Below are positions 6,311 to 42,178 of a stretch of 64,000 nt of DNA, piece after piece. The stretch's first letter is position 1. Every line of letters starts with the position of its first letter. The notes under the pieces were generated by a model. That model was given only the letters and a program-made list of their open reading frames with translations, had not been told where the DNA came from and ran no database searches. The DNA comes from Cladosporium halotolerans (Eukaryota): NCBI RefSeq assembly GCF_011745625.1, contig NW_027191472.1:310001-374000 (forward strand), given 5' to 3'. The position numbers were made by a program, and so were the translations under genes.

Positions 6311-8422
6311 TCAAACAGCTTTTCTGCTCCTCCGCTTGCTCTTCGCCTCACTCGAATCCTGTTTCACTTCGTCCTGAGGACCTTCTTGCTGCAGCGCGAG
6401 CCCCTCAAACTTTCCCACCAACTCATCACCTTCCTCCTCAAACACCTCAAACTCCCCCTCCTCCCCAACAACATCCCCAACCGCCAACCACCCCTCCTCA
6501 ACCGCCCACGCAACCAACTCCCCCGCCCGCCCCAAACTCCCCTCAGACCCCAGCACCCCCGGATCCAACGCCTCCTGCACCGCCAGCAGCGCATCTTCCA
6601 GCTCCCGCGCCCTCTTCCACCGCGCGTGCGCCTCAGGCTTCGATTTCTTCGACGGGCACCGAGAACTCGACGGCCACGCCATCTGCTCCAGCAGCATGTA
6701 GAGCACGTAGTGCAGCCAGCAGAGGTTCGTGAGCGGGTGGAACTGCGCCCAGGTGCGGGCTGTGCTGCGCTCGAGGGCCGCCATTTGCTCTGCGCTGGGC
6801 GGGTCGGGGTCGCCGGGGAAGGTGGCGTAGGGCGTCGAGTGGTAGATGCTGCCGCGCATGTAGCGGTAGATTTCGTATTGGTATTCTTCGGTGCTGTCGC
6901 CGTAGAAGAGGTGTGGGTCGTTGGCGAGGTCGATGTAGGCTACTTGGGAGTTGGTGGGGTTGTTGGATGGTGAAGGGGAGGTTGGGTCGGAGGAGGAGGC
7001 GACCATGGAGGCGCGCGAGATGGTGTAGTCGATCAGGGTCGATTCGAAGCCGGTGAAGCCGAGGGTTTTGGAGGGGTCGATGGTGGAGTCCTCGAGGGGC
7101 TTGCCGTCGGCGATCGGCGTGCGCACGCAAATATTTCCCAGGTGTAGGTCGCGGTGCTCGAACTCTGCTTCCCCTTCGCCCTTGGCCAGCGCCAGCACGA
7201 CTTGCCAGAAGACATCCCAGACAACCCAGATGCTGCTGCTGACGCCCTGTGTCACGAGCTTCTCGAGATCTGTGCCGGCGTCTTGCATTTCGATCACGGC
7301 CCACAGCTGGTCGGGCGAGTAGCTCGCTTTCTTGGCCGGGTCTGGGAAGATGCTAAGTTCCTTCTTCGCGGCTTTCTGTGCAGCGTTGAAAGCTTTGAAT
7401 GCGGATGCGAAAGGTGGAGGGGGGCTGCCTTTGAGCACTCTGAGGTCGCGGAAATTTGTGAACCCAGGGATATCTGAGAGGCGCTGAAGGAGCTTCAGCT
7501 CGCTCGCGACGTCGGCGGGCTTGGACATGTTCTCTGCCTTTTCGAGGGCTCGCTCACGATCACGCTTGCCTTTTGGTAAGGTCTCGGCGGGTGGTGTCAG
7601 AGCGATGACTTTCAGGACTGATTCGTCGTTTCGCGAAAGAGGGAGGTCGGCGTCTGCTGCGGCTTCCGGTTGGAGAGATAGGCGGTAGACTTCTCCAAAG
7701 GAGGCTTCTGCGATCTTGACCAGAGAGAAGTCCTCTTGAAGTCCGTCGGCCCAGTCCGAGAAGGATGAGACAGGATAGGCGGTTAGTTCCAGTAGCGATT
7801 CACAATGCATGCTGTAGCAGTCAGGAGCCTCAAGAGTTGTGTAGTCAGCCGTGGTCTGACCCGTCGTCGTGAGGGCAGCGAATGCAGATGTGAGATCGTC
7901 GGTCGTTTGGCTCGAAGCCTTGGTTTCGTATCTCTCAGCTTCTTCACTGTGGCTAGTCGATTTTGCAGAGTCGTTTCGAATTGATGGTGGTTGACCTAGC
8001 TCTTGAGCGTCCTCAAGCTCCTGCTCATCGCTAGGTTTCTGGCTTTCTGGCAAAGGAATTCCCTCATGGTCCTGCCCCGACCTTTGCGATATCACCGATG
8101 TGCCCGTTTTCTTCTTATCTTTGCTCCCGTCGCTGCGCTTAGTCTTGCTCTTACTGGGCTTCTTGGCCTTCTTCTCCTTTGGCAGCTCAGCCTGCACCGC
8201 CGCATTGCCATTGATTTCGCCCAGAGCCTTCCTGTGCCGCATCGGAGAAATAGCATCTAGCTCTTGTGCTGTATTTGGTTCCTGTCGCGATTCTCCGTCA
8301 TCCTGCAATATGGGTATTGTTTCCAACTGCTTTCGCTTGCTGTTGTCCGGGCTGGCGAAAATGTTCGTGGTGGTGCATGCCGCGCGCGACTTTTTGCCGT
8401 AGACAGCCTGCTTCCGAGGCAT
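6311..8422 (-). CDS. Haspin-family Ser/Thr protein kinase
   Basis: KIAEASFGEVY, VLKVIAL, FEHRDLHLGNI, IDYTISRA (DYT in place of DFG), YQYEIYRYM and WAQFHPLTNLCWLHY are haspin hallmarks. Long low-complexity N-terminus. Confidence 0.92.
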   Translation of the reverse strand: MPRKQAVYGKKSRAACTTTNIFASPDNSKRKQLETIPILQDDGESRQEPNTAQELDAISPMRHRKALGEINGNAAVQAELPKEKKAKKPSKSKTKRSDGSKDKKKTGTSVISQRSGQDHEGIPLPESQKPSDEQELEDAQELGQPPSIRNDSAKSTSHSEEAERYETKASSQTTDDLTSAFAALTTTGQTTADYTTLEAPDCYSMHCESLLELTAYPVSSFSDWADGLQEDFSLVKIAEASFGEVYRLSLQPEAAADADLPLSRNDESVLKVIALTPPAETLPKGKRDRERALEKAENMSKPADVASELKLLQRLSDIPGFTNFRDLRVLKGSPPPPFASAFKAFNAAQKAAKKELSIFPDPAKKASYSPDQLWAVIEMQDAGTDLEKLVTQGVSSSIWVVWDVFWQVVLALAKGEGEAEFEHRDLHLGNICVRTPIADGKPLEDSTIDPSKTLGFTGFESTLIDYTISRASMVASSSDPTSPSPSNNPTNSQVAYIDLANDPHLFYGDSTEEYQYEIYRYMRGSIYHSTPYATFPGDPDPPSAEQMAALERSTARTWAQFHPLTNLCWLHYVLYMLLEQMAWPSSSRCPSKKSKPEAHARWKRARELEDALLAVQEALDPGVLGSEGSLGRAGELVAWAVEEGWLAVGDVVGEEGEFEVFEEEGDELVGKFEGLALQQEGPQDEVKQDSSEAKSKRRSRKAV

Positions 8423-20383: not shown

Positions 20384-23300
20384 TCAAGCACCCTCTCCCC
20401 TCTGGCTATCTCGGTCCTTCTTCTTCCTCAAAGCAGGCATGAGCGTCTTCGTGCGCCGCTCCTTCTTGATCTTCGCCGACGCATCCTGCTGCTGTAGCTG
20501 ATGCGCGACGTGCTCGGCCTGCTCGCGGCGCACCTCGCGCTGGTACGACGGCAGAGCGGTCGTATGCTCCGTGTCGCTGCTGACGGTGCTTGAGACGTTG
20601 CTCGGACTTCCGCTGGCGGTGCCGGTGGGCGACTCGATTGACAGGCGTGCGGGGCGACTCGGACGCTGGAGCGTGAGCGGGCGGCGCGTGCTTTTAGGTC
20701 GGATCGGGGGCGGAGGCATGTCGAAAGCGGATGTGGAGTTGGATCCCGAGTGCGCGGGTGTGGGTTCGTAGTTGCGCGAGGAAACTTCGTCTTCGTCGGA
20801 TTGCTCTTGTAGGTCGGCGGCGGGGTTGTGGAGGGAGTTGGAGAGGGCTTCGATGTGAGGCGGGGATGTGATGGCTGGGTCCGGGGCGAGTCGGCCTGCC
20901 ATGTCGGCTGATGCAGGCCGCTCGAGCTGGTCTATTAGCTCGTCCCACCGAAAACTGAGAGCGCTGTTGGGGCGCTCTGCTCGTTCTGCGCGGCTGAGGC
21001 ATTCTTGTGTTCGAGCGTGCAGGGTGCTGCAAACGTCGTGGAATGTTTTGAGATCGCCCTCGGAGCTGTGAATGGCCTGCATCAGAGTGATTTGCGGCTT
21101 CCCGGTCGCGGTGGTATCATGGTCGCTAGTCTGGGATGTGGTCTCGAGCCAGAGCTGAATGAGCTCGGCGAAGCAGCGAGCTTGATCAATGAGATACGGT
21201 AAGCTTGGAAAACCTTCGCGACTCGTAGGTGGCAGGCGGTGCATAATCGTCATAGGCGTCGTGTAGCTAAGATGTGTCTCGGCGCTCGTGACGCCGCCGA
21301 TGCTGGTGGGAGACGAGCTGTCGGAATGCGAGAACGAGGATGAGAGGAGCGGCGTAGGCACGTAGCAGACGTCGTCGATGAAGCCCTTGAAGCTCTCGCG
21401 GTGCTGTGTAAGGAACTGGTTCATCGGCTCCATCCAGTGTTCTTTGGTCCCGAATGAGGCCATGTTGGCCAGCGTTTGAAGGGACTTGGCGATCAAGGTG
21501 CAAGTTCGGCGAGCCCTAGGCTTCATGTCGTCTGTCACGCAAAATCAATACACATACTCAGTAAAAGCTTGAGGGTGACATACCTTTCATGAGACCGAAG
21601 AGCTTCGGGTTGAGAACAGCCGGACAGAAGAATCGCAGAAACAGGAATCCCGACACACTGCTGAAGCTCACGCTCCGCAAGAAATCGCCGTACCGATCCT
21701 CAGCACACGCTCGCACGTGCCTGAAGATGCGCCTCAATTCGATCGGGCACTTTGCCTTTGCAGTCACGATTGACTTCCACACTTCCTGTGTCAAGCCGAG
21801 TAGACGCCGCCAGTTGCGATCCAGATCACCTGGCACTGCGACCCTGTTGGGATCGACCTCGCAATCCATGTCCTTTTCATTGATGTCCCTGACCTGAGCA
21901 CCAAGAGCCTCTTCCAGATATTCTCTGCCGACCCGGCGCATGTGACTGTCCAGACTCTTCGTCAACAGTGTGTTGCCTCTGAAGAGTAAATTGGCCTCGA
22001 GGGTAGCATTCTTGTTCATGTCGCGGACGATGAGCTCCCGATCTTGGTTCGCGACCCCAGGATGGCTCTCGCTACTATCGTTTGAGCCCATCCTGCGACT
22101 GTACCGTAACCTGTTGACGGAGCTCTCCTTGTGCACGCTGTCAATCTCGTCTTCAACGAGTGCCATGATCCAATCACTAGCCCGGCCAGACACTTGGAAG
22201 ATGTTGAGGAGACAGTCGCTGAGTCGTTTCAGTTCGCCCGGGATAATCTGCGCAACCTGAAGGGTGAGTCCGTTCGAAAAGCGATGGAGCAAGTCACTGA
22301 GTGGTTGGTAGTCCTTCGACATGAGGACGACGCCTTCCTCAGCTCTAGCTTTGATGAGGATCTCGCCAACGCGCTGGTTGTACATGTTGACAACAGGCCA
22401 CCATTTCTCGATCTCGTTCGCAGCGGCAAGCTCTTCAAGGTAGATTTCGACTTTGCCACAAGTCACGTCGAATGTGATCCCGCTGTATCCTCCCTCAGCA
22501 TTACCGTTGCCGGTAAATCCGTAAGCTTCGTTCACAAGCTTGCTCTGTTGCGACTCTTGTGCGCGTGCGGACTCCGGAGGTCGTCGCTTGATCACGACGC
22601 TCGCACTGTTGAGCACAGGAGGAAGGTCGGTAAACTCGAAAGTCTCGCCCCATAGTGGGTTCAGTCCTTCGTACTTGGCCACGGTCTTGCCTCGGGTCTC
22701 ATTGTCCAGTAGAACCTCCACGTGGTATCCGTATTGCTCTGGACGGATTTGGGGCGCTTTGCCATGCCCACCGCTGAATCCGACGTCTGGAGCGTTCGCA
22801 CCGGTTGGTGGGTACATCTTTGCCTCGACAACACGCACGTGTAGTGAGCGCTCCATGCGGAACATGTCTGCCGTAGAAGTCGCCAGCGTCTCGTGATTCT
22901 CCGTCTCGTCGCTGTCTGGTCGCGGGCCGTACAGTGCTGGTATGGTGAAGGCTCGAAGGAGTACGAACCAAACTTCAAAGAGGACCCTGCTCTCGAGACT
23001 CAGGAAGATCGGTCTGAGCAGTGGGCTAGCGCCGCTTTGGCTGCTTGTGTATTGTGGATAGATCGCGATGCAGTGTTCGTTTCCCAAGACACTGGGGTCC
23101 AATCTCTGAATGGCGCATCTGCTCAGCTGACTGAGCTGCACGACCGAGATCAATGTGTTGTCCGAATCTGAATGTAACTTCAACTCTCCGTTCTCTCTGA
23201 GCTGACCACTGATTCTCCTCCATCGCCTCCCGCCAATGCTTTGAACACGGTAAACTTGCGGCCTTCCAATCGCAGCCTGCCCGAGCGATGACGCTGGTGT

Positions 23301-24719
23301 ATTGTTGTAAGTTACGTTGGTGTCCCAAAAGATCATTTTTCCAATTTTGATGACGGGTGCCTCCCTCGGCGTACCAGGCACCACTGATCTGCGCCTATTA
23401 CTTCGATTGCTGTCCGCGCGGACGCGGGCATCCGGGTCTTGAATTGAGGTGGATCGTGAGATCGCAGGACGAGGAGGCAGTTGAGGCGTTGCTTCGGCGT
23501 CGGATGATGTGGCGCTTGTCTGTGGCTGTGACCTTCTGCTCGCATGGCCTCGAGGAGGGATGGGTTGCCAGCAAAGCAATGCTGCGAACCATGAATCCAG
23601 GTCCGTTTGGTTGAACAGTTTCAGGTGAATATCCGACGACGACTGCGGCGAGCTCACGCTGATGTACGGTGCGTCGCCATCCTCCTCGAGATCTATCTGA
23701 CATCCTCTGAGATCCGGAATCAGAGTCTTGTGGCTGCCTTCACTGCCTCTTGGCTCGAAGAGTAAGCTACCCGTGTCTTCCTTGATGTAACAATACGATT
23801 GCGACCACAGAGAATCCGGCCCACGGCGGAAGAGAAGACTGCCGCTCATCCGACCGTCGAGAGTCTTCATGAGATGCAATATCCGCCGTGCATTGGCCGT
23901 GGGCAAGGATCCGGTGACTGACTCGGCGGTGTTTGTAGACACGGGTGATGCGCTTCGTCTGCTCATCATCTCCGCCGGGGTATGCACGGGCGAGCCAAGC
24001 GAGGATATTGAAGGTGCGGACGGCGGCGAGGTCGCTGCAGGGACGGAAGCCAGATAGTCGGCGCCGCCAGCTTGCAGAGGCAGGCCGGTGGTGTTGACGC
24101 TGGCGATGCGGTGTCGGTGCCTCAGGGACGTCGGCGAACGGTCCCGCGTGCGGCGCTCGTCCAGCGTCCGTGTACGTGGCCGGTTGCTGTTGGAGGCCTC
24201 GCGGCCGCTCTGGATCGTGTGTGCGTGTTCTCCATTGCCCTGGGCGGTGGTGGTGCTGCTGCGGCCCAGCATTCCTCGGCCGTTGGCCGCGCTCGTGCGG
24301 CTGCCGGGGCTCCTGTTGCTCAGGTCCCACTCGCGGTCCCTCCGCAGACGCGTGCTGAGGCTGCTCGTCGGGCTCGTCCGGGTCGCGGCGCGGCCGCCGG
24401 TGATGGTGGTGGTGGTGACGGAGGGGTAGATGGGGTGCTCCAGGCTGGTGGTGCCGCGGCCGGCGTGCTCGGGGTCGCTGTCGTCGGGTGTGACGGTCCT
24501 GATGGTCGCGCTGGCGTGCGCAGGCGCGGCGGTGTCACCCATCCCAAGCGACGCCTGCACATGGGCGTGCTGCACCTGCGCCTGTGCCTGAGCCAGCGCC
24601 AGCGCCTCGTGCTGCGCGGCCTTGTTCGCCTTCTCCTCCGCCAGCCACTCATCGTACAGACTCGGCTCCTTCCTCCGCCGCGGCTCCGTCCAGTGCTGTC
24701 TGCCGCGCCCGCTCGCCAT
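20384..24719 (-). CDS. Ras GTPase-activating protein with PH/C2 domains (Bud2/Cla2-like)
   Basis: ANLLFRGNTLLTK (arginine finger), FLFLRFFCPAVLNPKLFG, RTCTLIAKSLQTLAN and C2 motif NPLWGETFEF. Intron 21532-21583 (GTATGT...CAG) joins the two ORFs. Likely ATG at 24719. Confidence 0.92.
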
Positions 24720-27239
24720 GGCGCCGGGTGTGCGTGTGGTCGGCGAGGGCGAGGGCGAGGGCGGCGCGGTGTTGGTGGTGGTGCTGCTGCTGCTGCTGCT
24801 CTTCAGCCGCCCAGGCTGGCAGCCCAATGGCTCGGGGGCGGTAGTGGCAGGAGAGTGCAGACGACCGGCGCATCGCGCAGCGCTCCCAAAACCGCAGGCC
24901 GCTTCTTGACGCACGCCGGGCCCGCCGAATGCCTGCCGCAGGGCCTGCCCAAGGTGCCGATGCCAGTGCTACAGTGCAGGTGGTCCCGCGCGCACGGAAA
25001 CAAACGCCCGCCCGATCGCACGTGTCCTCCGTCCAGAATGCAGCCAGAAGCGCGGCGCACGCAACAGCCTCCAAAGTCTAAGCGACGGCAATAGGGTGGC
25101 ACTGGTGGGAACGAGGCCTGCAGCAGAGCAGACGGCTGAGGGGAGCAAAAGGCGTAGCACCGCAGCCGTGCGGTGAATGTGGGGAGCAGCGCGTTCGAGC
25201 GATCCGCCGCTGCTGACAGGCGAGTAAGGCGGCTTAGGGTACAGCACGCGAGGGGGGGCGGGAGGGAGGGGAACAACAGGCGACGAGGCAGCTGAGGGCT
25301 GACTGACGGTGCAATAGATATCTCAGACGGCGCACAATCGCGCTCTCGTGCTGCTGTTTCGCATGCGAGCGTCCGCATTGCAGGCAAAGACCGCAGCCCG
25401 GCATGCCCCAGCAGCCCTTCCATCTTCGAGGACAGCTTTGGGCCTCCCGGCAGCCATCCACGCTATCCTGGACCTTCACGCACGTCTGGCCAGTCCGGCA
25501 TGCCCTCACGCCTCTCGGACCCGCTCAAACGGCGCACCGCTTTCTCCTAGCCTGGCAGCCCGACCCTTCGACGAGTATTCTCTGCGCCCGCCCACGCGCT
25601 TTCCGGCAAAATCCCCGTCTCCATCCTGCGGGCCTGCTGTTTTGCCACATCTGCAGCCAGCCGACACACGACCTCCGTCCGAGCCATCGCCGCGCCTATA
25701 CAGCTAGCTACGTGGGGGCGAGCGACGGTGCGTGCGGCCGGGCCAGCCGGTGCGCAAGACGCCTGCTCGCCGGAAGGATGGGCGCTACCGAGGTCGCTTA
25801 GGCTCTGCTGCCACGGCCGGCCACGCTCGCCTTGTCGATGACTTGCGCAGGGCGAACCGCTGTTTGGGCGGAGCTACGAAAGGTAGAGTTTGCGGACCCT
25901 GGCCAACGCATGTGGTTTCAGCATTTCTTTGCGTGTTTCAGCTGGGAGAAAATGTTGCCCCGGTCTTTCTGCTAAGACCGTCAGGGTGCGTGACGGGCAC
26001 GAATGTGCCGTGCGTGGGATGAAGATGCCCTGTCCCCGGAAAATGGTAGATTGCCATGCGTCCTCTCAAATCTAAAATGGCGGCACTCGCTGGTCAGCTG
26101 CAGCCTGTAGTAGGCTTTGGCTTCGGGCCCCGGCGGAGAGAGCCGCCCGACCTCACCTCGTAAATCTCAAACTGAGGTAGTCCCTTTGCAACGTATTTGA
26201 TCTGAGCGACGGCTTTGGAGAATCGTAGGTTGTTTTCGATATATTACTGTAAGCTTTTCTTCACATCTGGATGAATGCGCGGGCCTCAAGCACGACCGCC
26301 GTTGCTGTACTGTACTTCACGTTTGTGTCGTGTCACTGCCTCCCCAACGCTTCTAGACCACGTTTGTCCTACCATACGCCTCTTTACTTACTCAAAGCGA
26401 GACAGATGAGTCTCGAACATTGCTCACTATCAAGATCAGTCTAAAGACCGCAATCGCCCGTGAAGCAAGTGCCAAAAGGAAGCTCGCGACTGTGGGACAT
26501 TCATCGACCTCGCATGTCCCGCCCTGTGGCGATCGTATGCTCTCAAGAAAGCCAGAGATGTGCCGAAATGCCGTTTTGCCTCTCGGGTTCTACAAGCTGT
26601 GCATCTCCCTCAAGGGCCAAGACGGACGCGCTGCCGGTTGGAGTGTTGTCATCAGCACCTCCTTACCAGTGCCTGAGCCCATGGGAAAGCTTATGGCGGG
26701 ACCATTTCAGTCTTAGCGATGAGTCTCTTTGTTCCAAGGGTAGGGAATTGCTGTGGCTCTTACATACGTTGCACTAATGGCCCTGGGGGGCAATCATCAC
26801 CGTGCGCACGGATATCTGTCCATTAATGCACCCACGAGGTGTGATCAGCCCGTGGATTTTCTGGTGGCCATCCTCATCCTTGGAAAGAGACTTTCGACTC
26901 AACGGCTGTCGTCTTTTTGCATTGTTCTCTTTGTCTCAGGAGATGAACCATGGCGTTTGGTCCGCCTGTGGTGCTGACCTTGGTGAGAGGTTAAAGTTGA
27001 GTGCCACTTTTGGAGAATTGACAGGATTATCTATTAGCGTAGGGCGTGCTCCCATTATTGCCGACTAGGCAAAACACCATTGCTCCTTTGAGCAGAAGTA
27101 TTCGGGGCACGATGGAATCCCTTTCCGGCGTCGAGTTCTTTGTCTTCCCGGAAGATGCACTGGGCGCTTCTTTGATGCACGACGCAGGACCTGCGGAGCA
27201 AGTTCCCTCATATCGACACGATCTGTTCAATCTGTTTAC

Positions 27240-30200
27240 AGTACTGGAGCTATTGACTGATTTTCCGACCCCATTTCGGCCTTGCCGAAAGATTGAAGAG
27301 AGCTAAGCAGACGTCTTCACTCGTGCGGCGTGCCATCACGAATCCCGGGGCATCTTTTCGTCCGCGCTATCAAGGCTACTCAAGGAATCGCGCAGGCACA
27401 TTCGCTCGCAGTACCGCAGTTCCTAATCGTCGACGGGATACAAGGCGCCATCTTCACACCCGATGTCATAGACCAGTAACAAGGAGCTGTGGAAGTTCTC
27501 CGTCACGTACCTCTAGAGCATTGCGGGTCACACGGTGGGCCTCTGCCTCTGTCAACGCTTCCTCCGCTACCCGTCGTCCTCGCCTTGGAGCTTGTACCTG
27601 ACTTGCTAGAAGCTTACCAGCTCGACCCTTGCCATCGAGAGGAACAATCGGGGTTCTTCATTCACACGCCCGCGCGCTCTTGACTTGTGAGTGTGTCTCC
27701 TACGACACCTTGGTCAAGATCACTTGCAGCACCACGCGCTACCAACTCTCCGACCGTGTCTTCCCTTCCAGAGCTGTTGTCCGTCTTGTCAGTCCCACAG
27801 TGGTCTGTTCAGGTCATTGAGAAGAAACAAGGAGCCGCGACCCGCTCTGCTGATACAAGATCTTACGGCTTTGGAGGTGCTGCATATCTCATCGTTTATT
27901 GTCAAGCCATCTTGCGCCGTCGAGAGCAATAATCGAAAGGTTCAACTCAGCTAGCACGCGTCCCAGGATTACTCAGCAACTGTCAAGCCATCGAGCCGCT
28001 ACCTTGCGCACCGTTCTCATCATCACTTCAGAGCCTGTCTGAGCACTTGAAGAAAGAAGCAAGTACGTCGGTGGACATTGGCACATACACAGATCAACGA
28101 AGCATCCATCAGTCATTGGAGCCGCTACCTGACTTGCCTTTCTCGACCAGAATCTTCCGACCATTGAAAGAGTTTGAAGCCTATTGCCGCTGCTGCAGTC
28201 ACATACCTTGGATCCAGTGACGACTACTGTGTCATTTTGGCTGCTACCTGCTTCACCGCACTCACATCTCGCCAACACGGGCCATCGAGAGCTCTCCATC
28301 ACGATCGATAGCCTCGAGTCTCAAGCCATAGATACAGATCGTCTCGGAAAGATCAGAGCTGCTATCAATCGCTTCGTTTTCTTCACGAACCTTTGGGCCA
28401 TTGCGGGATTCGAACGCGACCACCAATTCGAATCACAAGCTCGCGATCTACTCAGCATTCCCCTACCATTGGAGCTGCTGCCCGCCTCGCGGATTTCATC
28501 CCAGAGCTCCGGACCACCTAGGATAATCATTGATCCCCACTGTCATAGATCTCAGGCTTGAGTGTCTCTGAGTCCTTGGAGCTACAACTAGGCCATTCTT
28601 ACCCGGAGAACTTCAACCAGAGGATCATTGGAACAACAGTAGCTCGTGCTACCACTCACCGTCGGTATTCGGTCATTGAGCGTCATCATCACTTTACGCT
28701 GGACTTATCATCACTCTACGCTGTCACCTATCCCAGGACTATCAAGCATCTCCGAGTGTTTGGAGCTACTGCTAGCGTTACTACTCACCCGGAGATCTCG
28801 ACCAAACAATCATTCGGACATTAGCAGCTTGCGCTGTCACGTACCTAGGATTGAGCAGGCATCTCCATATCCTTGAGGCTCCTTTGCTATCAGTCTCCTA
28901 GGATCGCGAACCGCTGAGAAGAATGGTGGGGACACTATCATTTGACGGTGGTAACCTCGTTACTTTACGCTGGGACATCATTGGTTCGCGCTGTCGCGTT
29001 TCCCAGAGTTGTTGAGTACACTGCGTCCTTGCAGCTACTGCTACCTAGGGTTACCGAATATACCGGGAGCTCTCGAACCATTGAGAAGAGTCACTGGTAC
29101 AGTGGTTCGGGCTATCATATCTCCCAGACCAATCGACTACTTCCCGCGTCCTTGGAACTATTACTACCTAGGGTTACCAAACATACCGAGACCCCTGGCA
29201 CCATCGAGAAGAGTCGCTGGAACAGTGAATCGCGCCATCATATCTTCCAAACCAATCGATCATTTCCCGCGCCCTTAGAGCTACTGCCAGCGTCAACATC
29301 CTCACCGAGGGGGACCCGAACTATTGAGAAGACTCGCTGGGGTATCAGTTCGCGCTATCACATGCCCAGGGTTGAGTGGGCATCTCGCTCTTACTAAGAG
29401 AGCCTCGAAACATTGAGAAGACTCACTGGGATATAAGTCCGCGCGATCAAAGTCCTATGATCTTGTGGACATCTCCGCGTCTTTGGAGATACTACCAGAG
29501 TTCCCGCTCTCACTGAGGAAGCCTCGGAGTGCTGAGAAGACGATAAGCCCGCGCGATCACATACCTGGGGTCTCGTGGACATTTTCACGTCCTTGGAGCG
29601 ACTGCCAAAGTTCTCGCTCTATTGAGAAGACTCCCTGGGATATCAGTTCACGCCATCACATACGTAGGGTTTAGTGGATATTCCCGTATCCCTCAAGCTA
29701 CTACCGACGCTGCTGTTCCAATCCGAGGGCGCTCGAACCATTAGGAAGACCCGGTGACATATCAGTTTGGACTGTCATATTCCCAGAACTTTTTAGGCCT
29801 CTCTATATCCTTGAAGCTACCGACGTTGCCATTACTATCCGAAGGGGCTCGAACCATTAAGGAGACTCGGTGAAAGATCAGCCTGGGCTGTTACATACCT
29901 AGATTTTTACAGGCCTCTCTATATCCTTGGAGCTACTAACCCTGTCATTCCTATCCGAGGGCGCTCGAACCATTGAGAAGACTCGGTGAAAGATCATTTC
30001 GGACTGTCATATTCCCAGACTTTTGTAGGCCTCTCTATATCCTCGAAGCTACCGACGTTACTGTTACTATCCGAAAGGGCTCGAACTATTGAGAAGACTC
30101 GGGAAAATATCAGTTCGAGCTGTTGTGCCTGGAGGTTTCTAGTCCTTTCTATATCCTTGGAGCTACTACCGACGTTGCCGTGTTACTATCTGAGGGGGCT

Positions 30201-31355
30201 CGAACGATTGAGAAGACTCAGTTGGGGAGTCTGGGATGTGAGGCTGACTGGGTTGTAGTATGTTCTGCGCCGATTGAGAGGCGTTTTCGATCAGTACCTT
30301 CGGGGCCGATGAGCTTTCTCAAGGGATTGGGTGCGGTTGAGATTTGAATAGTGATCGATTGGCTAACTCGTTTTGCCCAGACGATCGTCAGCCGCGAGGT
30401 CGACCCGTCAGTCGAGCCTTCTCCCCATCCGATATCGGAATATCAGTTCAGACTGTTCTATATGTCCGTCTTCCATAGGTCTCTCTACATCCTTGGAGCT
30501 ACTACCGACGTTACCGTTCTCACTAGGGATTCTGCGACTATTGAGAGACCCTTAAGAAGAATCGCTGGAATATCCATTCGCACTGTCATATGCCTAGGCT
30601 TTAGTAGGCATTTCTGTATCCTTGGAGCTACTACCGACGTTGTCGTTCTCACTCGGGGGTCTATAACCATTGAGAGACTATTGAGAAGACTCTGGGAAAT
30701 ATCAGTCCGAACTGTCATATGCCAAGAGGTCTATAGGCCTCTCTCTATTCTTGGAGCTATCACCGACGTTACCGTTCTCACTCGGGGGTCTATAACCATT
30801 GAGAGACTATTGAGAAGACTCTGGGAAATATCAGTCCGAACTGTCATATGCCAAGAGGTCTATAGGCCTCTCTCTATCCTTGGAGCTATCACCGACGTTG
30901 CCGTTCTCACTCGGGGGTCTATTACCATTGAGAGACTATTAAGAGGGCTCGCTGAGATATTAATTCGCACTGTCACATGCCTAGGGTGTAGTAGGCATCT
31001 CCATATCCTTGGAGCTACTACCGACGTTGCCATTCTTACCGGGGGTTCTAGGGCCACTAAGAGACGGCTGAGTGGATTATCACTCTCCACTGTCACATGT
31101 CCCTAGAATAATCGATCCCCGCGTCACCTTGGAGCTGCTACCGACGTTGCCATTCTCACCGGGGGGTCTGGGACCACTGAGAGACCACTGAGAAGAACCG
31201 CTGCGGACCACCACTTTACGCCGTCACATGCTCTAGGAAAATCGAGTATCCCCACGTTCTTGGAGCTGCTACCAGCGCTGGTATTCTCACCAGGGGGTCT
31301 GGGACCACTGAGAGGAATCGCTGCGACATCATCAGTTCGCACAATCACATGCTCG
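27240..31355 (+). repeat. Head-to-tail tandem array of ~115-130 bp units (21 clear units from 28469, more degenerate copies to the left)
   Basis: Recurring core CCTTGGAGCTACTACCGACGTT...ACCATTGAGAAGACTC...ATATCAGTTCG..CTGTCACAT. Anchors at about 28469, 28576, 28760, 28873, 29029, 29152, 29275, 29483, 29593, 29693, 29811, 29927, 30043, 30157, 30493, 30622, 30751, 30880, 31009, 31129 and 31260, with degenerate matches near 27245, 27585, 27870 and 28115. Left edge is approximate. Confidence 0.93.
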
Positions 31356-31410
31356 ATCGCTCCTTCCTTGTGACCACGCACCTTCCCACAACGGGACCGG
31401 GAGCTCCCAC

Positions 31411-31546
31411 GCGTAGCGCGCGCGCGCACATATAAATATTTTTCTCCCGCCGCGTCCTCCCAAAAATTTTCCTTCCCACGACCACACCGCTGCACCACCA
31501 CCAGCACCACCACCACACCACACCACACCACAACAACACCGACACA
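31411..31546 (+). promoter_or_regulatory. Core promoter and 5' leader of the coiled-coil gene
   Basis: (GC)n run at 31416-31427, TATAAATA at 31431-31438, pyrimidine-rich tract, then a (CAC)n/(CAA)n leader ending ACACA-ATG at 31547. Confidence 0.7.
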
Positions 31547-32980
31547 ATGACGAAGAGCCTGTCCAACCGCGACAGAAAGAACAGGCAGAAGGAGAAGAAG
31601 CGCAATGCGCTGGAGAGAGAGAGACAGGAGGCGGATGCGCAACTAGCGCAGGAGTGGTATGAAGAGGAGGACCCCGCAGGCGGGCGCCAGCCCACCCCGC
31701 CCAGCGACGCCGAGGGCACGGAGACCGGGGCGCTAGACCCCGGCTCCTCCTCCACAACACCAAGCGCCGCCACCACCGCCGCCGCCGCCGCGACAGAAGA
31801 TACCGGCAACATGCAGCCAGAGACGCCCGCCGAGGGCGCAAACATCGAGGAGGCCGACGCCGCCAGCAAACTCCGCTACCTCACGGAGAGATACGAGGAG
31901 GAGAAGGCCCAATGGTACGAGGACCTGCGCAACCTCCAAGAAAAACTAGCGGACGCACAAGAGGAAGTGCGCCTGGCCGACGAGGAACGCGACCGCACCA
32001 AGGAGATTTGTTTCGAGCTCCGCGACGAGGTACTTTCGGCCCTTGACCAGATTTCAGCAAAGGAAGCTGAAGTTCACAAGCTCGAGGACGTGGTCGATCA
32101 GGAGAAACACAATGTCATCGCCGCACAACGAGAGATCAACAGGCTGAAGGCAGAGAGGGACTCCTCCATCAAGGCTGCCGAAGACAGCAACTCCGAGCTC
32201 ACCGACGCAATCAATCGCAGGAATGCCGCCGAGAGCCACAACGACAGCTACCGAGTCAACGTCGAAGGGCTCCAAAACGAGGTCGCGCACCTCACCTGCG
32301 CGTACAGGGAGTCGGAGGAGGACCTGCGCGAGGTCCACGCTGCAATGGACAGGGCCTTTGTCGGGATGGCATCGGACCTGTCCCGTTCCCAGCAGCTGGA
32401 CCTCCTCCGAGAGCAGCACGATGCTGCGGTCCAGGCTCTCGCCGTTTCCGGCTCGTCGGCGGAAGACGAGTCGGAGGACAACTCGGAGGCAGAGGGTGGG
32501 CACAAGGCGCAACGTCCAGCGCCGCTCACCCTCTCCGCGCTCTCCGTCGTGGAGACTGCCCCCGTCACTACGGGCAGAGGTGTCTCCTCCACCGGCACGC
32601 AGACCGCCGGTGCTGTCGTCGCGGCCGTCGTCGCCGCCCCCCCTTCTCTGGTGTCCTGTGGTGTGCAGACCACTGCGCCACCCACAAAATCCGCCGGCAC
32701 GCAGACGGCCCCACTTGCTGGCGAGCAAGTGGCAGTGCCCGTCGCGGTCACGCCGCGCTGGATGTGGGTGGTCTTCCTGGCCATCGCCGCCGCTTGCCTC
32801 GCCGCCTTTGCCGCTCTCTCGCGGGAGCGGCAACTCTGGGTCGTTGCCAACGACCTGACCTACCTCCGGTTCGCAGGGACCGAGACGGAAGGTTGGGTCG
32901 ATTGGTTCGGCCTGGGGTTGGCTGTCCTGGCAGTTGGCACGGCCGGGAGCAGTGGTCTGGGCTCTGGCTTGCTCGGCTAG
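31547..32980 (+). CDS. Intronless coiled-coil protein with TQT motifs and C-terminal membrane anchor, function unknown (477 aa)
   Basis: Strong GC3 codon bias. Basic N-terminus (RDRKNRQKEKKR), ~190 aa heptad-rich region, STGTQT / SCGVQT / SAGTQT motifs, TM WMWVVFLAIAAACLAAFAAL, then ERQLWVVANDLT and a second hydrophobic tail. Confidence 0.85.
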   Translation: MTKSLSNRDRKNRQKEKKRNALERERQEADAQLAQEWYEEEDPAGGRQPTPPSDAEGTETGALDPGSSSTTPSAATTAAAAATEDTGNMQPETPAEGANIEEADAASKLRYLTERYEEEKAQWYEDLRNLQEKLADAQEEVRLADEERDRTKEICFELRDEVLSALDQISAKEAEVHKLEDVVDQEKHNVIAAQREINRLKAERDSSIKAAEDSNSELTDAINRRNAAESHNDSYRVNVEGLQNEVAHLTCAYRESEEDLREVHAAMDRAFVGMASDLSRSQQLDLLREQHDAAVQALAVSGSSAEDESEDNSEAEGGHKAQRPAPLTLSALSVVETAPVTTGRGVSSTGTQTAGAVVAAVVAAPPSLVSCGVQTTAPPTKSAGTQTAPLAGEQVAVPVAVTPRWMWVVFLAIAAACLAAFAALSRERQLWVVANDLTYLRFAGTETEGWVDWFGLGLAVLAVGTAGSSGLGSGLLG

Positions 32981-33127
32981 CGTGTTGTCGAGGTAGCTCC
33001 TGGACAGTGATCGCGGTGACACCGGCGTTCGCGCTGGTATCCGCTGAAGATCCTGCCAGGGCCCGAGTAGGGACGATACCCAGGGCGCGTCAATGCCCTC
33101 GGTGTTCCCGAAACGGACCTCACACGC
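32980..33127 (+). ncRNA. Structured RNA element, copy 1 (three-way junction, UUCG-capped arm, loop-E arm)
   Basis: P1 GAGGT(32990-94)/ACCTC(33117-21), extended by CGTGT/ACACG. Arm A CCTGG/CCAGG...ACCGGCG-TTCG-CGCTGGT. Arm B CCG-AGTA-GGGA...TCCC-GAAA-CGG. Confidence 0.65.
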
Positions 33128-33158
33128 CGCCTTGCAGCACCACAGGCAAGACCGGAGG

Positions 33159-33327
33159 AGGGGACTTATCTGGGGCAGCTCCTGGACGGTGGAGTAGCGG
33201 TGATGCCGGCGTTCGCGCTGGTTGCCGTGAAACTCCCGACAGGGCCTTAGTAGGATGAGACCGTGAAGGCCTTCGGGCCTTCGGTAGTCCGAACGGGGCC
33301 CCATTTCTTTTTTGTTGAGATACCCCT
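33159..33327 (+). ncRNA. Structured RNA element, copy 2, with a T-rich tract at its 3' side
   Basis: P1 TGGGGC(33171-76)/GCCCCA(33298-303). Arm A CCTG/CAGG...GCCGGCG-TTCG-CGCTGGT. Arm B CCT-TAGTA-GGAT...GAAGGCC-TTCG-GGCCTTC...GTCC-GAAC-GGG. TTTCTTTTTT at 33304-33313. Confidence 0.68.
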
Positions 33328-33412
33328 GGGTCTGGGTTTGGTTTGGGTTTGGGTTTGGGTTGGCGTTCTGGGTTTTGCTTGGGTTTTGGTTTTGCTTGGG
33401 CTGTTTGGTTTT
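33328..33412 (+). repeat. GT-rich telomere-variant tract ((TTTGGG)n-like) with G-quadruplex potential
   Basis: GGGTCTGGGTTTGGTTTGGGTTTGGGTTTGGGTTGG...GGGTTTTGCTTGGGTTTTGGTTTTGCTTGGG, with essentially no A over about 85 nt. Confidence 0.8.
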
Positions 33413-33420
33413 TATAGTGA

Positions 33421-33452
33421 GTCACGACGGGAGTCGTGCACCTAATGATGAT
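33421..33452 (+). other. Terminal GNRA hairpin plus short (ATG)n tail
   Basis: CACGAC-GGGA-GTCGTG (33423-33438) followed by CACCTAATGATGAT. Confidence 0.5.
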
Positions 33453-34181
33453 ACCCCCGCCGCCACCAGTTGTGGTCGAGCCTCCCGCTGATCTTGTTTT
33501 CCATTCTCCATCTCTCCATCGTGACTTCACTGTTTCTTCGTGCTCTGGTGAGGTTCTACTCTCCGCTAATGGTCTTCCGCACGAGCTGCTACCGTCAGCT
33601 TTGGCCTGTTATATAGATCCGTCACCGCTGAGATGCGTTGTAGCCGGGTTGTCTCAGTCACAACATGACCGAGCGTGACTTGGTCGTTTTTCTTCCCGAT
33701 ACCTGCCGCGATCATCCCAGCTCGTGACCCCTGGTACTGCACCAAGAAATCGCAACACGAGCTGTTGTCATCCGCTCTGTTCTAATGTAACGAATTTTTG
33801 CCATTGAGATCCCCTGCACGTGGTTGCGCGCGAAGGTGCAGGCTTGGTGGTGCTGCCGTACTACTTTGATGGATTCGCGTGGTCTGCTATCGACCTTCGC
33901 TCTCCACTATGTACTTCCTATGTGAGTCGCTACCATCAGTGGCAGTTTGAAGACGAGATCAAGGGTATGAAATGCTTTGCGAAGAATCGCGCATGCTGCA
34001 TGACATCTGCGGGTGCGACCATCGTCTCCGGCATCGTGAAGGAGGGTGTTGTCCAGGAGGCACTTCTGAATGAATCCAAACTACAAGCTCGCCTCGTGCA
34101 CTCGCACGAAAGGACAATCGTACATAATGTCTCGAGAACAAGAACTTCATTGCCATGATCATTACATCCCTAAACCCTCAC

Positions 34182-35065
34182 TTACGCACTCTTACAACCC
34201 CTGACCGCCTCCCTCGCCTTTCCCACCAACCCATCGCCCTCGCAAGCTTCCAACCTCTCCTCCCAAACCCCCCACCTCTCCTCGTTGAAACCCCTCCACT
34301 CCTTCCCCTCCATCGCCTGCCCCTGCTTCGCCATCTTGCCCTCAAACTCCTTGCCCTGCCGCGACATCCCCCACAGCGCCGGCGCCGCGTACGCAAGCCA
34401 GGCCGCCGCCGCCGCTTGCGAGGTCTTGTCCGACGCCGGCGAGGGCGCGCTGTCCTCGAGCGCCATGCGGATTGTCCAGATGGCGTAGAGCGAGAAGTCG
34501 CTCGAGGCGGGAGCAGGGGTCGCGGAATGCTGCGTCGAGACTAGCGTTGCCGCGAAGGCGTTGAGGTTAATCCAGGCACTGCGCGCGTGGTGGTGCGAGT
34601 GGTCGGTTGCGGCTGTGAGGAGTGTTTGTTAGTGGATGCTGTGGAATGAGGGCGGTTTCCATGAGGATGGTAGGGCTTGCCAGCATTCCAGGCTTCTCTC
34701 ATCGCCGCCCCAAACACAGGCAGCTCTTTCCAGACTGTGGCGTCCCAGACTTTGCAGACCTTGCCGTTGCGCTCGAGGACGGGTCTGTCGCGCAGCGCGA
34801 GCACGAAGTCTGCGAGTTTCTGCCTGCCGGCGCTGTCGTGTGGTGTTTGCGTTGCTGCGGCGATGATGGCTTTCCAGGCGTGCCAGAGCTGGGCTTCGAT
34901 TTCGGATGTCGCTTTGGATTGCATGAAGAGGTCTTCGGTTGGGCCGCAGAAGGAGTCGAGCGCTGTGCCGAGGGATTGCGGTTTGTTGGAGAGATGCGTT
35001 GTTAGGCACTTGTATTCGGCGGAGTGTTTGATCGTGTGGTCGGGTTCAATGCTTGGGCCGCCCAT
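34182..35065 (-). CDS. DUF3632 family protein (one GC-AG intron)
   Basis: Motifs WKELPVFGAAMREAWN, WINLNAFAATL, YAIWTIRMALED, AAAAWLAYA and ERWGVW. Intron 34613-34680 (GCAAGC...CTAAC...CAG) restores the frame. Confidence 0.85.
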
Positions 35066-36193
35066 TGTGGTGGTGTTGGCGGGCTGTTTGGTGGCGGGTT
35101 GACGTGGTCGAGATCCTTGAGTGGAGTTGATGGTCTTTAGAGCGGGAGTCTTCTGGTGAGAAACAATCGAAGTATTCTTGCAAGAAAAGGTAAGCTCCAA
35201 TGCCAGCTGGTACTTCTTCCAAGAATCCAGAACGCGATGACGATGCAGGTACCTGAATGCCCTGACGTTACGTGGTGGCGCCCACTGCGACCACGGGCTC
35301 GCCGAGCTCCATTGCCACTCCACCCCTGCTCTCAACTGTCTGCCTTAGCAGCCTTAGCGGAAACCTCGCACTCCGCGACGTGACTACGCTCCACAAGCCA
35401 GCCGCGAGAGACGCTGCCACCGACCACGGATATTCCAGGATGACAACCACATGCCCTCGCCAGTGGGCCGCCCGCCAGGGAACAACAAGGCACCTGCCCG
35501 AGCCGGCTAGCCGCGTAGATCACTCCTGGGGCGGGCCAAGTGAAACTTGACGAGCCGACTGCACTCTACTTTGCCTGCCGCCGTTCACTGGACGGTCGCT
35601 ATAATTGAGTTGGCTTGGGATGGCCAGGACCCGCTCTGCATCTTGCATACTCGATAAGACATGTGCCTGCAGCGACGTCTCCGAATGGCTTGCTCGGGCC
35701 CGCGTTATGCTGCTTTCCCGGTGCAACATCGACCTGCACAGCCTTTTACACTCGAGAGTAGGACGGCCTGGCCGAGGAGATGGTTATTGGACGGCGTACC
35801 GGACTTGTTACCCTTTTAGTGAGTTGCCAATACATCGTGGCGGGCTTCTTTGGTTGTAAGCCCTCCTCGCCCCGGCTCTTGTAGGCAGGAGATGGAAAAG
35901 AGATCGGCACTGCGCATGAGCGACGGACCAAGGGCTTTCGAAGACTGCCCTCGGTTGCAGCCAAGAGCTGTATCTAATCCACGCCGTCGATGAGCGCCGA
36001 TGAGCTGCTCAAACCATGTGCAGATAGCATGGCGAGCCTCAAAGAACATAAGTATTGAGCGTTGTGCCGCATTGGAACTGGGTTTCTGTTCAGCAGCAGC
36101 ACCGCGAGTCTCACCGCCCTTCGTTCCAGATCTTGATACACGAGCTCATACAAACCAATCTACATTCGCTTTCTCCCATTCAAATCATTCACA

Positions 36194-42138: not shown

Positions 42139-42178
42139 TTAGGGTTAGGGTATCGATCATGGGGTTAAGTTAGGGTTA
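42139..42178 (+). repeat. Short interstitial telomere-like repeats (TTAGGG)
   Basis: TTAGGGTTAGGG (42139-42150), GGGGTTAAG and TTAGGGTTA (42170-42178). Confidence 0.55.

Follow-up and report, generated by a model that had tools for sequence, protein, structure and literature searches.

Within the 64-kb stretch of DNA analysed here (the window), a minisatellite array, an intronless open reading frame (ORF) and a duplicated folded element follow one another, and together they probably represent a syntenic, fast-evolving gene whose 3'UTR holds a conserved regulatory module that is absent from Rfam. The original prediction described an array of ~120 bp repeats before a TATA box, an intronless ORF of 477 amino acids, two copies of a structured RNA past its stop codon and a TTTGGG tract, and each of these was recovered (Table 1). 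It also took the parts to be one module, and they do appear to belong together as one unit, a view supported by sequence comparison: orthologous loci of distant relatives also have the folded element 3' of the gene, the G/T tract and arrays close by. At six such metagenome loci (L001 to L006) the encoded relatives are 26-42% identical and the gene neighbourhood (RasGAP, DUF3632, Pol eta) is the same.

Table 1. Position of the features of the block, in window coordinates
Feature	Position	Strand	Basis or remark
Degenerate tandem minisatellite, ~26-30 units of 116-131 bp	27583..31352	+	TRF, repeat families, anchor matches, nhmmer
Non-repeat insert, MITE-like	30222..30445	.	Interrupts array; imperfect inverted ends GGGGAG..GGCT.GACTG..GGG
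Promoter-proximal motif TCGCTCCTTCC	31357..31367	+	Single occurrence in 64 kb
TATA box TATAAATA	31431..31438	+	Read directly; 108 nt 5' of ATG
C+A-rich leader, presumed 5'UTR	31474..31546	+	C+A composition scan
Intronless ORF, 477 aa, no stop	31547-32980	+	Translation
Dimorphic coiled-coil segment, aa 129-217	31931..32197	+	Comparison with P0001 and run X14
3' element copy A	32984..33128	+	Fold z -4.3; best window match of model R1
3' element copy B, tandem paralogue of A, offset 180 nt	33164..33308	+	Fold z -2.4
TGAGATACCC motif containing AUACCC	33316..33325	+	Motif search
G/U-rich tract	33324..33419	+	Sole window stretch with >=90% G+T
Hairpin CACGAC GGGA GUCGUG	33423..33440	+	Dismissed as part of anything
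Lone CCATTGAGATCCC, one mismatch from relatives' array core	33801..33813	+	Core search

The encoded protein begins with a basic helix, followed by a long coiled coil (residues 98-276) and a disordered linker rich in Ser/Thr/Ala, in which there is one S..SVETAPV repeat. The only transmembrane helix spans residues 406-424, and a conserved tail of ~50 residues comes after it. Its family comprises 15 library proteins at E<=1e-3 (matches from E 2.4e-34 to 4.9e-4), the sole named member being a "hypothetical protein" of Cladosporium sp. The C-terminal module PWWMW..C..FAGL.RE.QIW.DAN..Y.RL has 13 columns that are invariant among 14 sequences, and in all 14 hydrophobicity peaks at a segment 60-75 residues before the C-terminus; the window protein has both the module and a transmembrane helix at this distance from its end. 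Residues 129-217 are ~44% identical to P0001, compared with ~98% for the remainder of the protein, and run X14 carries the other, diverged coiled-coil form of equal length (31993>32170).

None of the Pfam families reaches its cut-off for this protein or for 13 relatives, and the only matches of the window protein at E<=1 are LIP-1 (16 bits vs a cut-off of 34.1) and DUF7917. A profile search of the PDB returned generic coiled coils only, including a NudE-like protein at E 0.22 among many such matches. The proposal that the protein is dynein-adaptor-like is therefore not supported, and neither Hook nor BICD is among its Pfam matches at E<=1. A KASH protein was also considered, and the layout is similar, though no Pfam KASH match was found in the protein or the 13 relatives. 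The protein is fast-evolving and lineage-restricted, and its family has no name.

The two copies of the 3' element are each ~145 nt long, with a mean column identity of 77% (nhmmer E 1e-9 to 2e-10), and share a common fold in the form of a two-hairpin junction. Copy A has a closing helix P1 (GAGGU/ACCUC), hairpin P2 with a UUCG cap, a helix of 3 bp (CCG/CGG) and hairpin P3; in copy B both hairpins have UUCG caps; between the copies 5/38 pairs are compensatory. A search of Rfam 15 at E<=1 gave no matches in positions 26000-35000 of the window, nor in L001, L002, L004, L005 or L006.

An element of this kind is recognisable in 6/6 relatives, where it starts 0-45 nt past the stop codon as a two-hairpin, three-helix-junction RNA with UUCG or GNRA loop caps. 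Across an alignment of the L002, L004, L005 and L006 elements 92.4% of cells pair, vs 43-58% with the partners slid, and 12/47 pairs are changed on both sides, a count reached by 0/500 shuffles; this covariation is based on 4-5 independent sequences in an alignment fitted to the model. A covariance model (R1) for which L001, L002 and L004 supplied the sequences detects the elements of L005 and L006 with E ~3e-5. Its best match in the whole window is copy A, found at full length and directly past the stop codon with 11.9 bits, which corresponds to E 0.28 over 91 kb and E 0.0016 over the 3'UTR alone. After trimming, 6/6 elements fold with an identical helix order (MFE or centroid).

These results have to be weighed against coincidence, that is, a neutral minisatellite and a neutral duplication in the 3'UTR, with the likeness to the flanks of the relatives arising from chance or composition and the ORF alone being functional. 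Such a history is favoured by the failure of sequence-only searches between window and relatives: nhmmer with single elements gave no match linking the window element to those of the relatives, and a profile HMM of the four-sequence alignment had no match in the window, even in the 3'UTR alone. It is also favoured by the weakness of the reverse search, in which a model (R2) of copies A and B reaches the L004 element at E 0.26 and those of L001/L003 at E 3.2, misses those of L002, L005 and L006, and has a false top match within the L002 coding region. Against it stand the covariation between two clades of relatives, the detection of the elements in L005 and L006 at the E value given above, and the fact that the best R1 match of 128 kb of window strands lands in the 350-nt 3'UTR.

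The sequence past the element bears on the same question, as the most G+T-rich 60 nt of the locus begin 0-60 nt past the element in 7/7 loci and + strand ATACCC lies 210-380 nt past the stop codon in 7/7 loci, equivalent positions that argue against a neutral history. In the window ATACCC is found on the + strand at 33076, 33320 and 33451. The hexamer is common across the window (22 copies vs 11.8 expected); the 10-mer TGAGATACCC has 5 occurrences in ~99 kb, confined to the 3' flanks of the loci or to L002 array units, and is common to the L005 and L006 3' flanks as well as these array units. The repeat (TTTGGG)3 occurs once in the window, at 33342 inside the G/U-rich tract, and (TTAGGG)2 once elsewhere. 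This tract had been read as a telomere-variant tail, an interpretation at odds with its interstitial position between conserved genes, its three TTTGGG units and the different tracts of the relatives, which are GTTTG-, GGTTTG- or TTTTGT-like. The "terminal hairpin" thought to close the block is at chance level because the window contains 77 perfect hairpins of 6 bp, this one included.

The array upstream of the gene has TRF periods of 116, 123 and 129 bp (29023-31046), and a repeat-family search found 4-13 copies per family at a spacing of 114-131 bp. A 12-nt anchor with <=3 substitutions allowed has 26 matches from 27583 to 31258, and the significant nhmmer signal reaches back to 27987 (E 8.5e-19). 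The array is real but shorter than originally described, ~3.4-3.8 kb rather than 4 kb from 27240, because anchor matches begin at 27583 and nhmmer significance at 27987. With <=2 mismatches CCATTGAGAAGAC has 15 matches vs 1.53 expected, 14/15 of them within 27814-31197, and the repetition is far above chance. This is the one large tandem array of the 64-kb window, with all 4 TRF rows scoring >=150 falling in 29023-31046. Its units have a core that includes CCTTGGAGCTACTACCGACGTTGCC and CCATTGAGA(A)GAC and are best preserved on the gene side. They show no excess of RNA structure (z 0 to +2), a point for neutral history, and ORFs within the array have no Pfam families above cut-off.

The insert that interrupts the array looks like a MITE from its sequence. 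Runs X3 and X4 lack it and have 38 repeat-like letters in its place (joint 30221>30475), and its flanks differ in other runs (loose ends 30243, 30433); no second copy was found in the window. Between array and gene, the TATA box lies 79 nt past the last array unit (unit end 31352). The promoter-proximal motif TCGCTCCTTCC also occurs 5' of the ATG once in L001 and twice in L006, and no exact copy was found in L002. The C+A-rich leader is the sole 60-nt window of the 64 kb with >=90% C+A; a scan at 40 nt finds a second tract at 6454-6503.

Arrays occur near the gene in three lineages and have the core CCATTGAGA(TACC) in common. In the L001-L004 lineage, arrays of a homologous 98-bp unit lie downstream of the gene in L001, L002, L003 and L004 and, inverted, also upstream of it in L001 and L002, and L005 has a 77-bp array; L006 has none in ~5.5 kb upstream, its downstream side being cut off. 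In the window the lone CCATTGAGATCCC lies in the convergent spacer, the place where the downstream arrays of relatives sit. By nhmmer no significant similarity connects the window array with those of the relatives, and arrays occupy different sides of the gene among lineages, both of which speak for a neutral history. Against this, the L005 array and the L002 upstream array have 7 common 11-mers (control mean 0.1) and the window array and the L002 upstream array have 4 (controls 0.3, reached by 0/200), so that the array core is common to lineages beyond all controls. Taken together we consider a purely neutral origin of the block unlikely.

It is also conceivable that the element has no role as part of a UTR, and is either a small RNA gene in its own right or an intron of the 3'UTR, structured so that the closing helix brings the splice sites together. 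This idea draws on L005 and L006, where GTGAGT stands immediately past the stop codon and the element ends in ..CAACCACAG, on the ACAG that forms the 3' end of the element in 5/7 copies, and on the pairing of the element's two ends by the closing helix. It is hard to reconcile with L001, L002, L004 and both window copies, in which the element does not begin with a consensus 5' splice site, while the start of the element 0-45 nt past the stop codon at every locus fits a single transcript and neither form is backed by a match to an Rfam family. We judge it to be very unlikely.

The surroundings of the block indicate how it has been inherited. In a tblastn search of the six loci with window ORFs, a RasGAP orthologue (82% identical) was located upstream in L006; on the downstream side L003, L004 and L005 carry DUF3632, the gene after it and Pol eta (73-78% identical). 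The families of the neighbouring genes agree by Pfam. In four sequencing runs of close relatives the block is complete and sits at the identical site, with contigs of X3, X4 and X14 spanning the array, the ORF, both 3' copies and the flanks. Among the contig pieces listed from these runs there is no empty site and no joint that skips the block, and every contig examined has the locus once and in synteny. No inverted repeat pairing the two ends of the block was found, and ORFs in and around it have no transposase-type Pfam match. We think it likely that the block is an ordinary chromosomal gene locus, vertically inherited and non-mobile. The original prediction had named a single-copy syntenic gene with homologues devoid of array and 3' RNA as the observation that would speak against it; the gene is indeed syntenic in relatives, but its homologues do not lack these parts, because the element, tract and nearby arrays recur in distant relatives.

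The selfish or mobile cassette that had been proposed, in which the array is a cis site for a protein coupling a membrane to dynein and the 3' RNAs serve mobilisation, could appeal to parts that travel together through evolution, a fast-evolving protein with a dimorphic coiled-coil segment and inverted arrays on both sides of the gene in L001 and L002, but it is highly improbable and largely refuted because synteny is conserved (relatives' neighbours are 73-82% identical), and it is further opposed by the lack of an empty site among the contig pieces listed from four runs, of a mobility enzyme or terminal repeats in or around the block and of any dynein-adaptor family match, and by a G/T tract that is interstitial and sequence-variable. 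Dedicated gene regulation is favoured over it because distant relatives keep the folded element, the tract and AUACCC.

For a gene regulated through its 3'UTR, the presumed mRNA would carry, past the stop codon, a closing helix and two hairpins meeting at a junction, duplicated in tandem in the window lineage, and beyond the element a G/U-rich tract and then AUACCC. The module would act in cis on the fate of the mRNA, through its stability, 3'-end formation or localisation, with AUACCC as a putative site for a KH-type protein comparable to Khd4 of Ustilago maydis. The upstream array would be a locus-specific minisatellite that has persisted near the gene in several lineages. Its short conserved core CCATTGAGA(TACC) is related to the UTR motif TGAGATACCC, and the array most likely either serves as a cis-regulatory platform with many sites or arose in passing as a motif-bearing segment was tandemly duplicated again and again.

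A more far-reaching version, which we regard as speculative and rather doubtful, is a self-contained regulatory system that has stayed intact through a long divergence. Here a satellite core of 10-13 nt (CCATTGAGATACC, overlapping UGAGAUACCC) would recur in the 3'UTR beside an undescribed three-helix-junction RNA and the G/U tract, and one factor would read this core as DNA, RNA or both, tuning a fast-evolving, membrane-tethered coiled-coil protein with two diverged allelic forms. If true, the two deeply diverged coiled-coil forms would match what is typical of genes for recognition or conflict, for instance in allorecognition or drive. That a motif-bearing minisatellite has persisted near the gene in three lineages is unusual, as is the dimorphic segment, and both could indicate recognition or conflict biology. 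To our knowledge few conserved UTR RNA structures are known in filamentous fungi, and the element described here is tied to one fast-evolving gene family and is better preserved than much of the protein.

Several known systems resemble parts of the locus. Like a type III hammerhead, the element has three helices at a junction, an open helix in which its two ends pair and, ahead of the closing helix, a purine-rich strand of GAAA type. The core strand of the hammerhead is CUGAUGA (with GAAA), and a ribozyme of this type was rejected, the strand between the hairpins being CUUAGUA, AGUAG or GGAUG and Rfam giving no match. With KASH and tail-anchored tethers and with dynein adaptors (Hook, BICD, KASH5/Kms1) the protein has in common a long cytosolic coiled coil, one transmembrane helix close to the C-terminus and a tail that is short and conserved. 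KASH peptides end in PPPX, whereas the conserved tail of this protein is ~50 aa long with an extreme end of ..LFG. An array beside a gene for a coiled-coil protein and a short TTTGGG run recall the maize Ab10 knob with Kindr and the Magnaporthe MoTeR elements, though here there is no motor domain, extra copies or telomere context. In alpha satellite the CENP-B box is a conserved protein-binding core, and in the arrays described here units likewise drift between lineages while a short core, CCATTGAGA(TACC), survives; by contrast the array is 1-4 kb long, sits beside one gene and is unique in 64 kb, and binding to its core is putative.

The closest comparisons are with post-transcriptional control. 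The element resembles structured cis-regulatory elements of 3'UTRs, such as localisation or stability hairpins, in being a conserved multi-hairpin structure tied to one gene family and marked by compensatory changes and stable tetraloops. Structured-RNA motifs of fungi have been surveyed (PMC5640933, PMC8216456), and in PMC5640933 no mention of Dothideomycetes, Cladosporium, three-stem or coiled was found. In Ustilago maydis, according to the available part of PMC10450656, 3'UTR copies of AUACCC act as an instability element of membrane-trafficking mRNAs that depends on Khd4, and the effect is dose-dependent. The window has three copies of AUACCC in what is presumably a 3'UTR, and the position of the motif is kept in 7/7 loci. 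Khd4 is a basidiomycete protein, whereas the only named relative of the protein studied here is from Cladosporium sp., and binding is putative; the folded element and G/U tract found here are not described for U. maydis in that part of the source (PMC10450656). For AUACCC a reader has been established by experiment in a different fungal phylum, and the locus offers a directly testable case of post-transcriptional control beyond the usual model species.

The block under study lies between the RasGAP and DUF3632 genes, in window DNA that is fungal and nuclear, and is made up of a tandem repeat array, an open reading frame (ORF), a duplicated 3' element and a G/T tract, each of which was confirmed by the repeat, ORF and alignment analyses. 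The original prediction took these parts for a single mobile or selfish cassette. That they form one unit is upheld here, while their selfish nature is not, and a vertically inherited gene takes its place. The comparison is based on six loci (L001-L006) found in one scan of metagenome contigs with the family alignment, which encode relatives that are 26-42% identical, and on a tblastn search of these loci with the window ORFs. On the upstream side L006 carries an 82% identical RasGAP orthologue, together with the next gene; on the downstream side L003, L004 and L005 carry DUF3632, the gene after it and DNA polymerase eta, at 73-78% identity. Because the neighbourhood is kept in this six-locus set, the ORF gene is an orthologue in conserved synteny, and it is evolving much faster than its neighbours. 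The two-gene RasGAP block is inverted in L006 (109-4447) relative to the window (20387-24968), with the breakpoint in the spacer that carries the array in the window.

Four sequencing runs of close relatives (among them X3, X4 and X14; 95-99% alike) were compared through their contigs over 25000-36000. X3, X4 and X14 have the complete set at one site, from the array and the ORF to the two 3' copies and the flanks, and none of the contig junctions listed for this interval skips the block. Run X20 is labelled 'RNA?', and covers the array and spacers as DNA would, so it is uninformative on expression. The conserved synteny and the single site in X3, X4 and X14 leave a mobile or selfish cassette without support, and the block is better described as a gene that is inherited vertically and whose regulatory periphery is unusually conserved, a description that these comparisons support.

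Positions of the features at the locus and of the inverted arrays in two related loci (window coordinates unless a locus is named)
Feature	Position	Strand	Size	Remarks
RasGAP gene	21558-24914	minus		Pfam
Length-variable array sites among close relatives	27650-28118; 30588-30734; 31162-31292			run contigs
Non-repeat insert in array	30222-30445		~220 bp	ends imperfectly inverted
Array end	31352
Promoter-proximal 11-mer TCGCTCCTTCC	31357-31367			single occurrence in window, 5 nt past array
TATAAATA box	31431-31438			sequence read
ORF	31547-32980		477 open codons
Dimorphic coiled-coil segment	31931-32197		aa 129-217	two deeply diverged forms, equal length
Copy A of 3' element	32984-33128		~145 nt	after stop
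Copy B of 3' element	33164-33308		~145 nt	tandem with A
G/T tract	33324-33419			sole window stretch with at least 90% G+T
DUF3632 gene	34541-35335	minus		Pfam
Inverted flanking 98-bp arrays, L001	384-778 and 3644-4006
Inverted flanking 98-bp arrays, L002	37-322 and 2968-3774

The most informative part of this periphery is the 3' flank. In the six relatives a stretch with shared blocks begins 0-45 nt past the stop codon; the blocks read GUUUC(UC)GGGU(C/U)GCC, CAGCUUAGUAC or CAGCUUGGAUGG, GAAAAGGACCCUU and ..ACAGUG, and are followed by a G/T-rich run and then by (G)AUACCC. RNAalifold of L001, L002 and L004 gives, in this order, a helix P1 that closes the element, a small hairpin, the long hairpin P2, a helix of 3 bp and hairpin P3, and a covariance model built from these three elements (R1) recovers those of the second clade (L005 and L006) at full length with E about 3e-5. 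Covariation was assessed in a model-guided alignment of L002, L004, L005 and L006, which leans towards the model and holds four sequences only; in it 92.4% of cells are paired, compared with 43-58% when the partners are slid by 1-3 columns, and 12 of the 47 pairs have double-sided changes. The pairing values of this alignment were reached by none of 500 shuffles. The hairpins are capped by UUCG or GNRA tetraloops that are exchanged between lineages, the stems contain G-U pairs, and R1 scores 184 bits on the sense strand versus 29 bits on the opposite strand. The tetraloop swaps, the G-U pairs and the strand bias fit a real sense-strand RNA.

No Rfam family matches the window region or five loci, on which ground the hammerhead and other ribozyme and riboswitch classes were rejected, and the presumed 3'UTR element is new to Rfam. 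In L005 (872-877) and L006 (7439-7444) the letters GTGAGT stand directly after the stop codon and the element ends in CAACCACAG; to judge from these letters, splicing could remove the element as a 3'UTR intron in this clade. As a general reading the intron was rejected, because consensus splice sites occur in L005 and L006 only. After the G-rich tract of L004 there is a possible second, partial copy of the P2 region (847-900, nhmmer E 0.061), which hints that tandem duplication has taken place in this 3'UTR more than once.

In the window the structured RNA that had been reported as duplicated after the stop codon is indeed present as two foldable copies with a mean column identity of 77% (nhmmer E about 1e-9). 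The folds of copies A and B have a common helix order of P1, P2, 3-bp helix and P3 (z of copy A -4.3), and 5 of 38 pairs are compensatory between them. P1 is formed by GAGGU/ACCUC in copy A, GGGGC/GCCCC in copy B and GGGU(C/U)/GACCC in the relatives, the 3-bp helix is CCG/CGG in copy A versus CUU/AAG in the relatives, and the junction strands AGUAG and GAAAC of the window resemble AGUAC and GGAAA. R1, which holds no window sequences, has its top window match in copy A at full length (32979-33132), with 11.9 bits and an E of 0.28 over 91 kb against 8.6 bits for the runner-up; if the 3'UTR alone is searched the E is 0.0016. Neither nhmmer nor an element profile HMM found a match between the window and the elements of the relatives, and the reciprocal model built from copies A and B is weak, its top match being false. 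Taking position, fold, the one-way model match and what follows the element together, we regard it as probable that the window element is homologous to that of the relatives.

What follows the element is a G/T-rich run. In all seven loci (the window and its six relatives) the locus-wide G+T maximum in a 60-nt window begins 0-60 nt past the element, the tract being of the GGGUUU type in the window, GUUUG or GGUUUG in L001 and L003, and UUUUGU in L005 and L006. What is conserved is composition and not a telomere-like unit, and the proposed telomere-variant tail finds no support, since the sequence of the tract varies between lineages and its composition is kept. The window holds 77 hairpins of equal quality, the supposed terminal hairpin at 33423 among them, and this feature was dropped. 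(TTAGGG)2 occurs as a single, interstitial copy at 42139 of the window.

Sense-strand ATACCC is found 210-380 nt past the stop codon in all seven loci, and three of the eight sense-strand copies in the window lie within 33076-33456. The 10-mer TGAGATACCC occurs five times in ~99 kb, always in the 3' flanks of these loci or in array units of L002. Passages of a study of Ustilago maydis describe AUACCC in the 3'UTR as bound by the KH protein Khd4, and as destabilising the mRNAs of membrane-trafficking regulators in a dose-dependent manner (PMC10450656). By analogy, Khd4 and AUACCC offer a lead for mechanism. Most likely, the mRNA would be controlled in cis via the structured 3'UTR element, the G/U tract and AUACCC.

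On the promoter side, TCGCTCCTTCC recurs in the promoter of L001 (one copy) and in that of L006 (two copies), with none elsewhere in the loci, which makes it a candidate transcription-factor site. Among 60-nt stretches of the window, the leader alone has at least 90% C+A; at 40 nt one further tract, 6454-6503, reaches this value. A duplex between the C+A-rich leader and the G/U tract was considered and rejected, because its energy is no better than that of genomic 100-mers, a share of 0.46-0.92 of which are at least as good in four loci. In three of these four the energy is worse than that of shuffles.

The window array, which has no second large tandem array beside it in the 64 kb, is a degenerate tandem repeat with units of 116-131 bp. 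The periods that TRF finds in 29023-31046 are 116, 123 and 129 bp, and a repeat search gives families of 4-13 copies spaced 114-131 bp apart. A 12-nt anchor has 26 matches with up to 3 substitutions from 27583 to 31258, and by nhmmer the array is significant back to 27987. Of two unit motifs, the first has 15 matches versus 1.53 expected (14 within 27814-31197) and the second 9 versus 0.18 (all within 29692-31276). The units have no excess of RNA structure on either strand (z 0 to +2), most periods are not multiples of 3, and neither of two ORFs within the array has a Pfam family above cut-off; the array was therefore rejected as RNA or coding sequence. Among the close relatives, X3 and X4 have one additional 131-bp unit, X14 has lost 145 bp, a deletion of 469 bp (27650-28118) is shared by X14 and X20, and X3 and X4 have 38 repeat-like letters instead of 30222-30474. 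These differences are ordinary polymorphism. The non-repeat insert is absent in X3 and X4 and has differing flanks in the other runs, and is probably a small dispersed MITE-like element.

Arrays also accompany the gene in the relatives. In the L001-L004 lineage each of the four loci has a 98-bp array on the downstream side of the gene, homologous to those of the other three (E 1e-13 to 1e-41), and L001 and L002 also have an inverted copy upstream; the upstream units of L002 include a palindrome of 13 bp (CCATTGAGATACC..GGTATCTCGATGG) and have strong folds (z -3 to -6). A 77-bp array lies downstream of the gene in L005, and L006 has none in ~5.5 kb upstream, its contig stopping 250 nt past the stop codon. 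By nhmmer the window array has no similarity to those of the relatives (E at least 4). The L005 array and the upstream array of L002 have seven 11-mers in common (GCCATTGAGATACC, ATCTCAATGGCTC) versus a control mean of 0.1, and the window array and L002 have four (TCGAACCATTGAGA) versus 0.3, a number reached by none of 200 controls. With up to 2 mismatches allowed, CCATTGAGATACC has six matches in the whole window, and every one of them belongs to this locus: the array contains five, and the sixth (33801) lies in the spacer that bears arrays in the relatives. The similarity is limited to a short core, CCATTGAGA(TACC). The array is thus a minisatellite specific to this locus, which has persisted beside the gene or formed there anew, with a core related to the UTR motif; conservation of this core may be due to a binding site or to repeated duplication of one segment.

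For the encoded protein a near-length search returned two close proteins and an exhaustive search 15 at E<=1e-3, eight of these at E<=1e-10, the sole source name among the relatives being 'hypothetical protein' from Cladosporium sp. The alignment reveals a family plan that starts with a basic helix at the N-terminus and continues with a long coiled coil, a block like VH..FED.FSDMAKDL, a variable number of SFS.I.SVETAPV repeats and a C-terminal module in which 13 columns are invariant (P403, W405, W407, C417, A422, L424, R426, E427, W431, A434, N435, R441 and G457). Within the coiled coil, P0001 (a related library protein) and X14 have a form of the dimorphic segment that is ~44% identical, the remaining protein being ~98% identical, and X3 and X4 have the form of the window. 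Judged from the sequences, this pattern resembles that of an old balanced polymorphism or of a conversion tract. The predicted protein of one close relative, P0002, passes after residue ~329 into the +1 frame of the same DNA, where it matches window ORF 32223-32858; the cause of this frame switch is a frameshifted allele or an error of assembly.

No Pfam family reaches its cut-off in the ORF protein or 13 relatives, and a profile search of the PDB gives generic coiled coils only. The description 'dynein-adaptor-like' is not borne out: the coiled coil is what speaks for it, and neither search gives such a family. The ESM Atlas returned nothing firm for the whole protein (first match 0.90, low recognition) and no usable match for the C-terminal part. 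In the AlphaFold model (mean pLDDT 64.9) residues 2-40, 98-276 and 404-442 form confident helices separated by disordered stretches, and the whole amounts in essence to a long helix plus a transmembrane helix; a single strongly hydrophobic segment lies 60-75 residues from the C-terminus in 14 of 14 sequences. This layout, with a coil in the cytosol, a single membrane helix and a conserved short tail, resembles that of tail-anchored or KASH-like tethers, a likeness that does not amount to membership.
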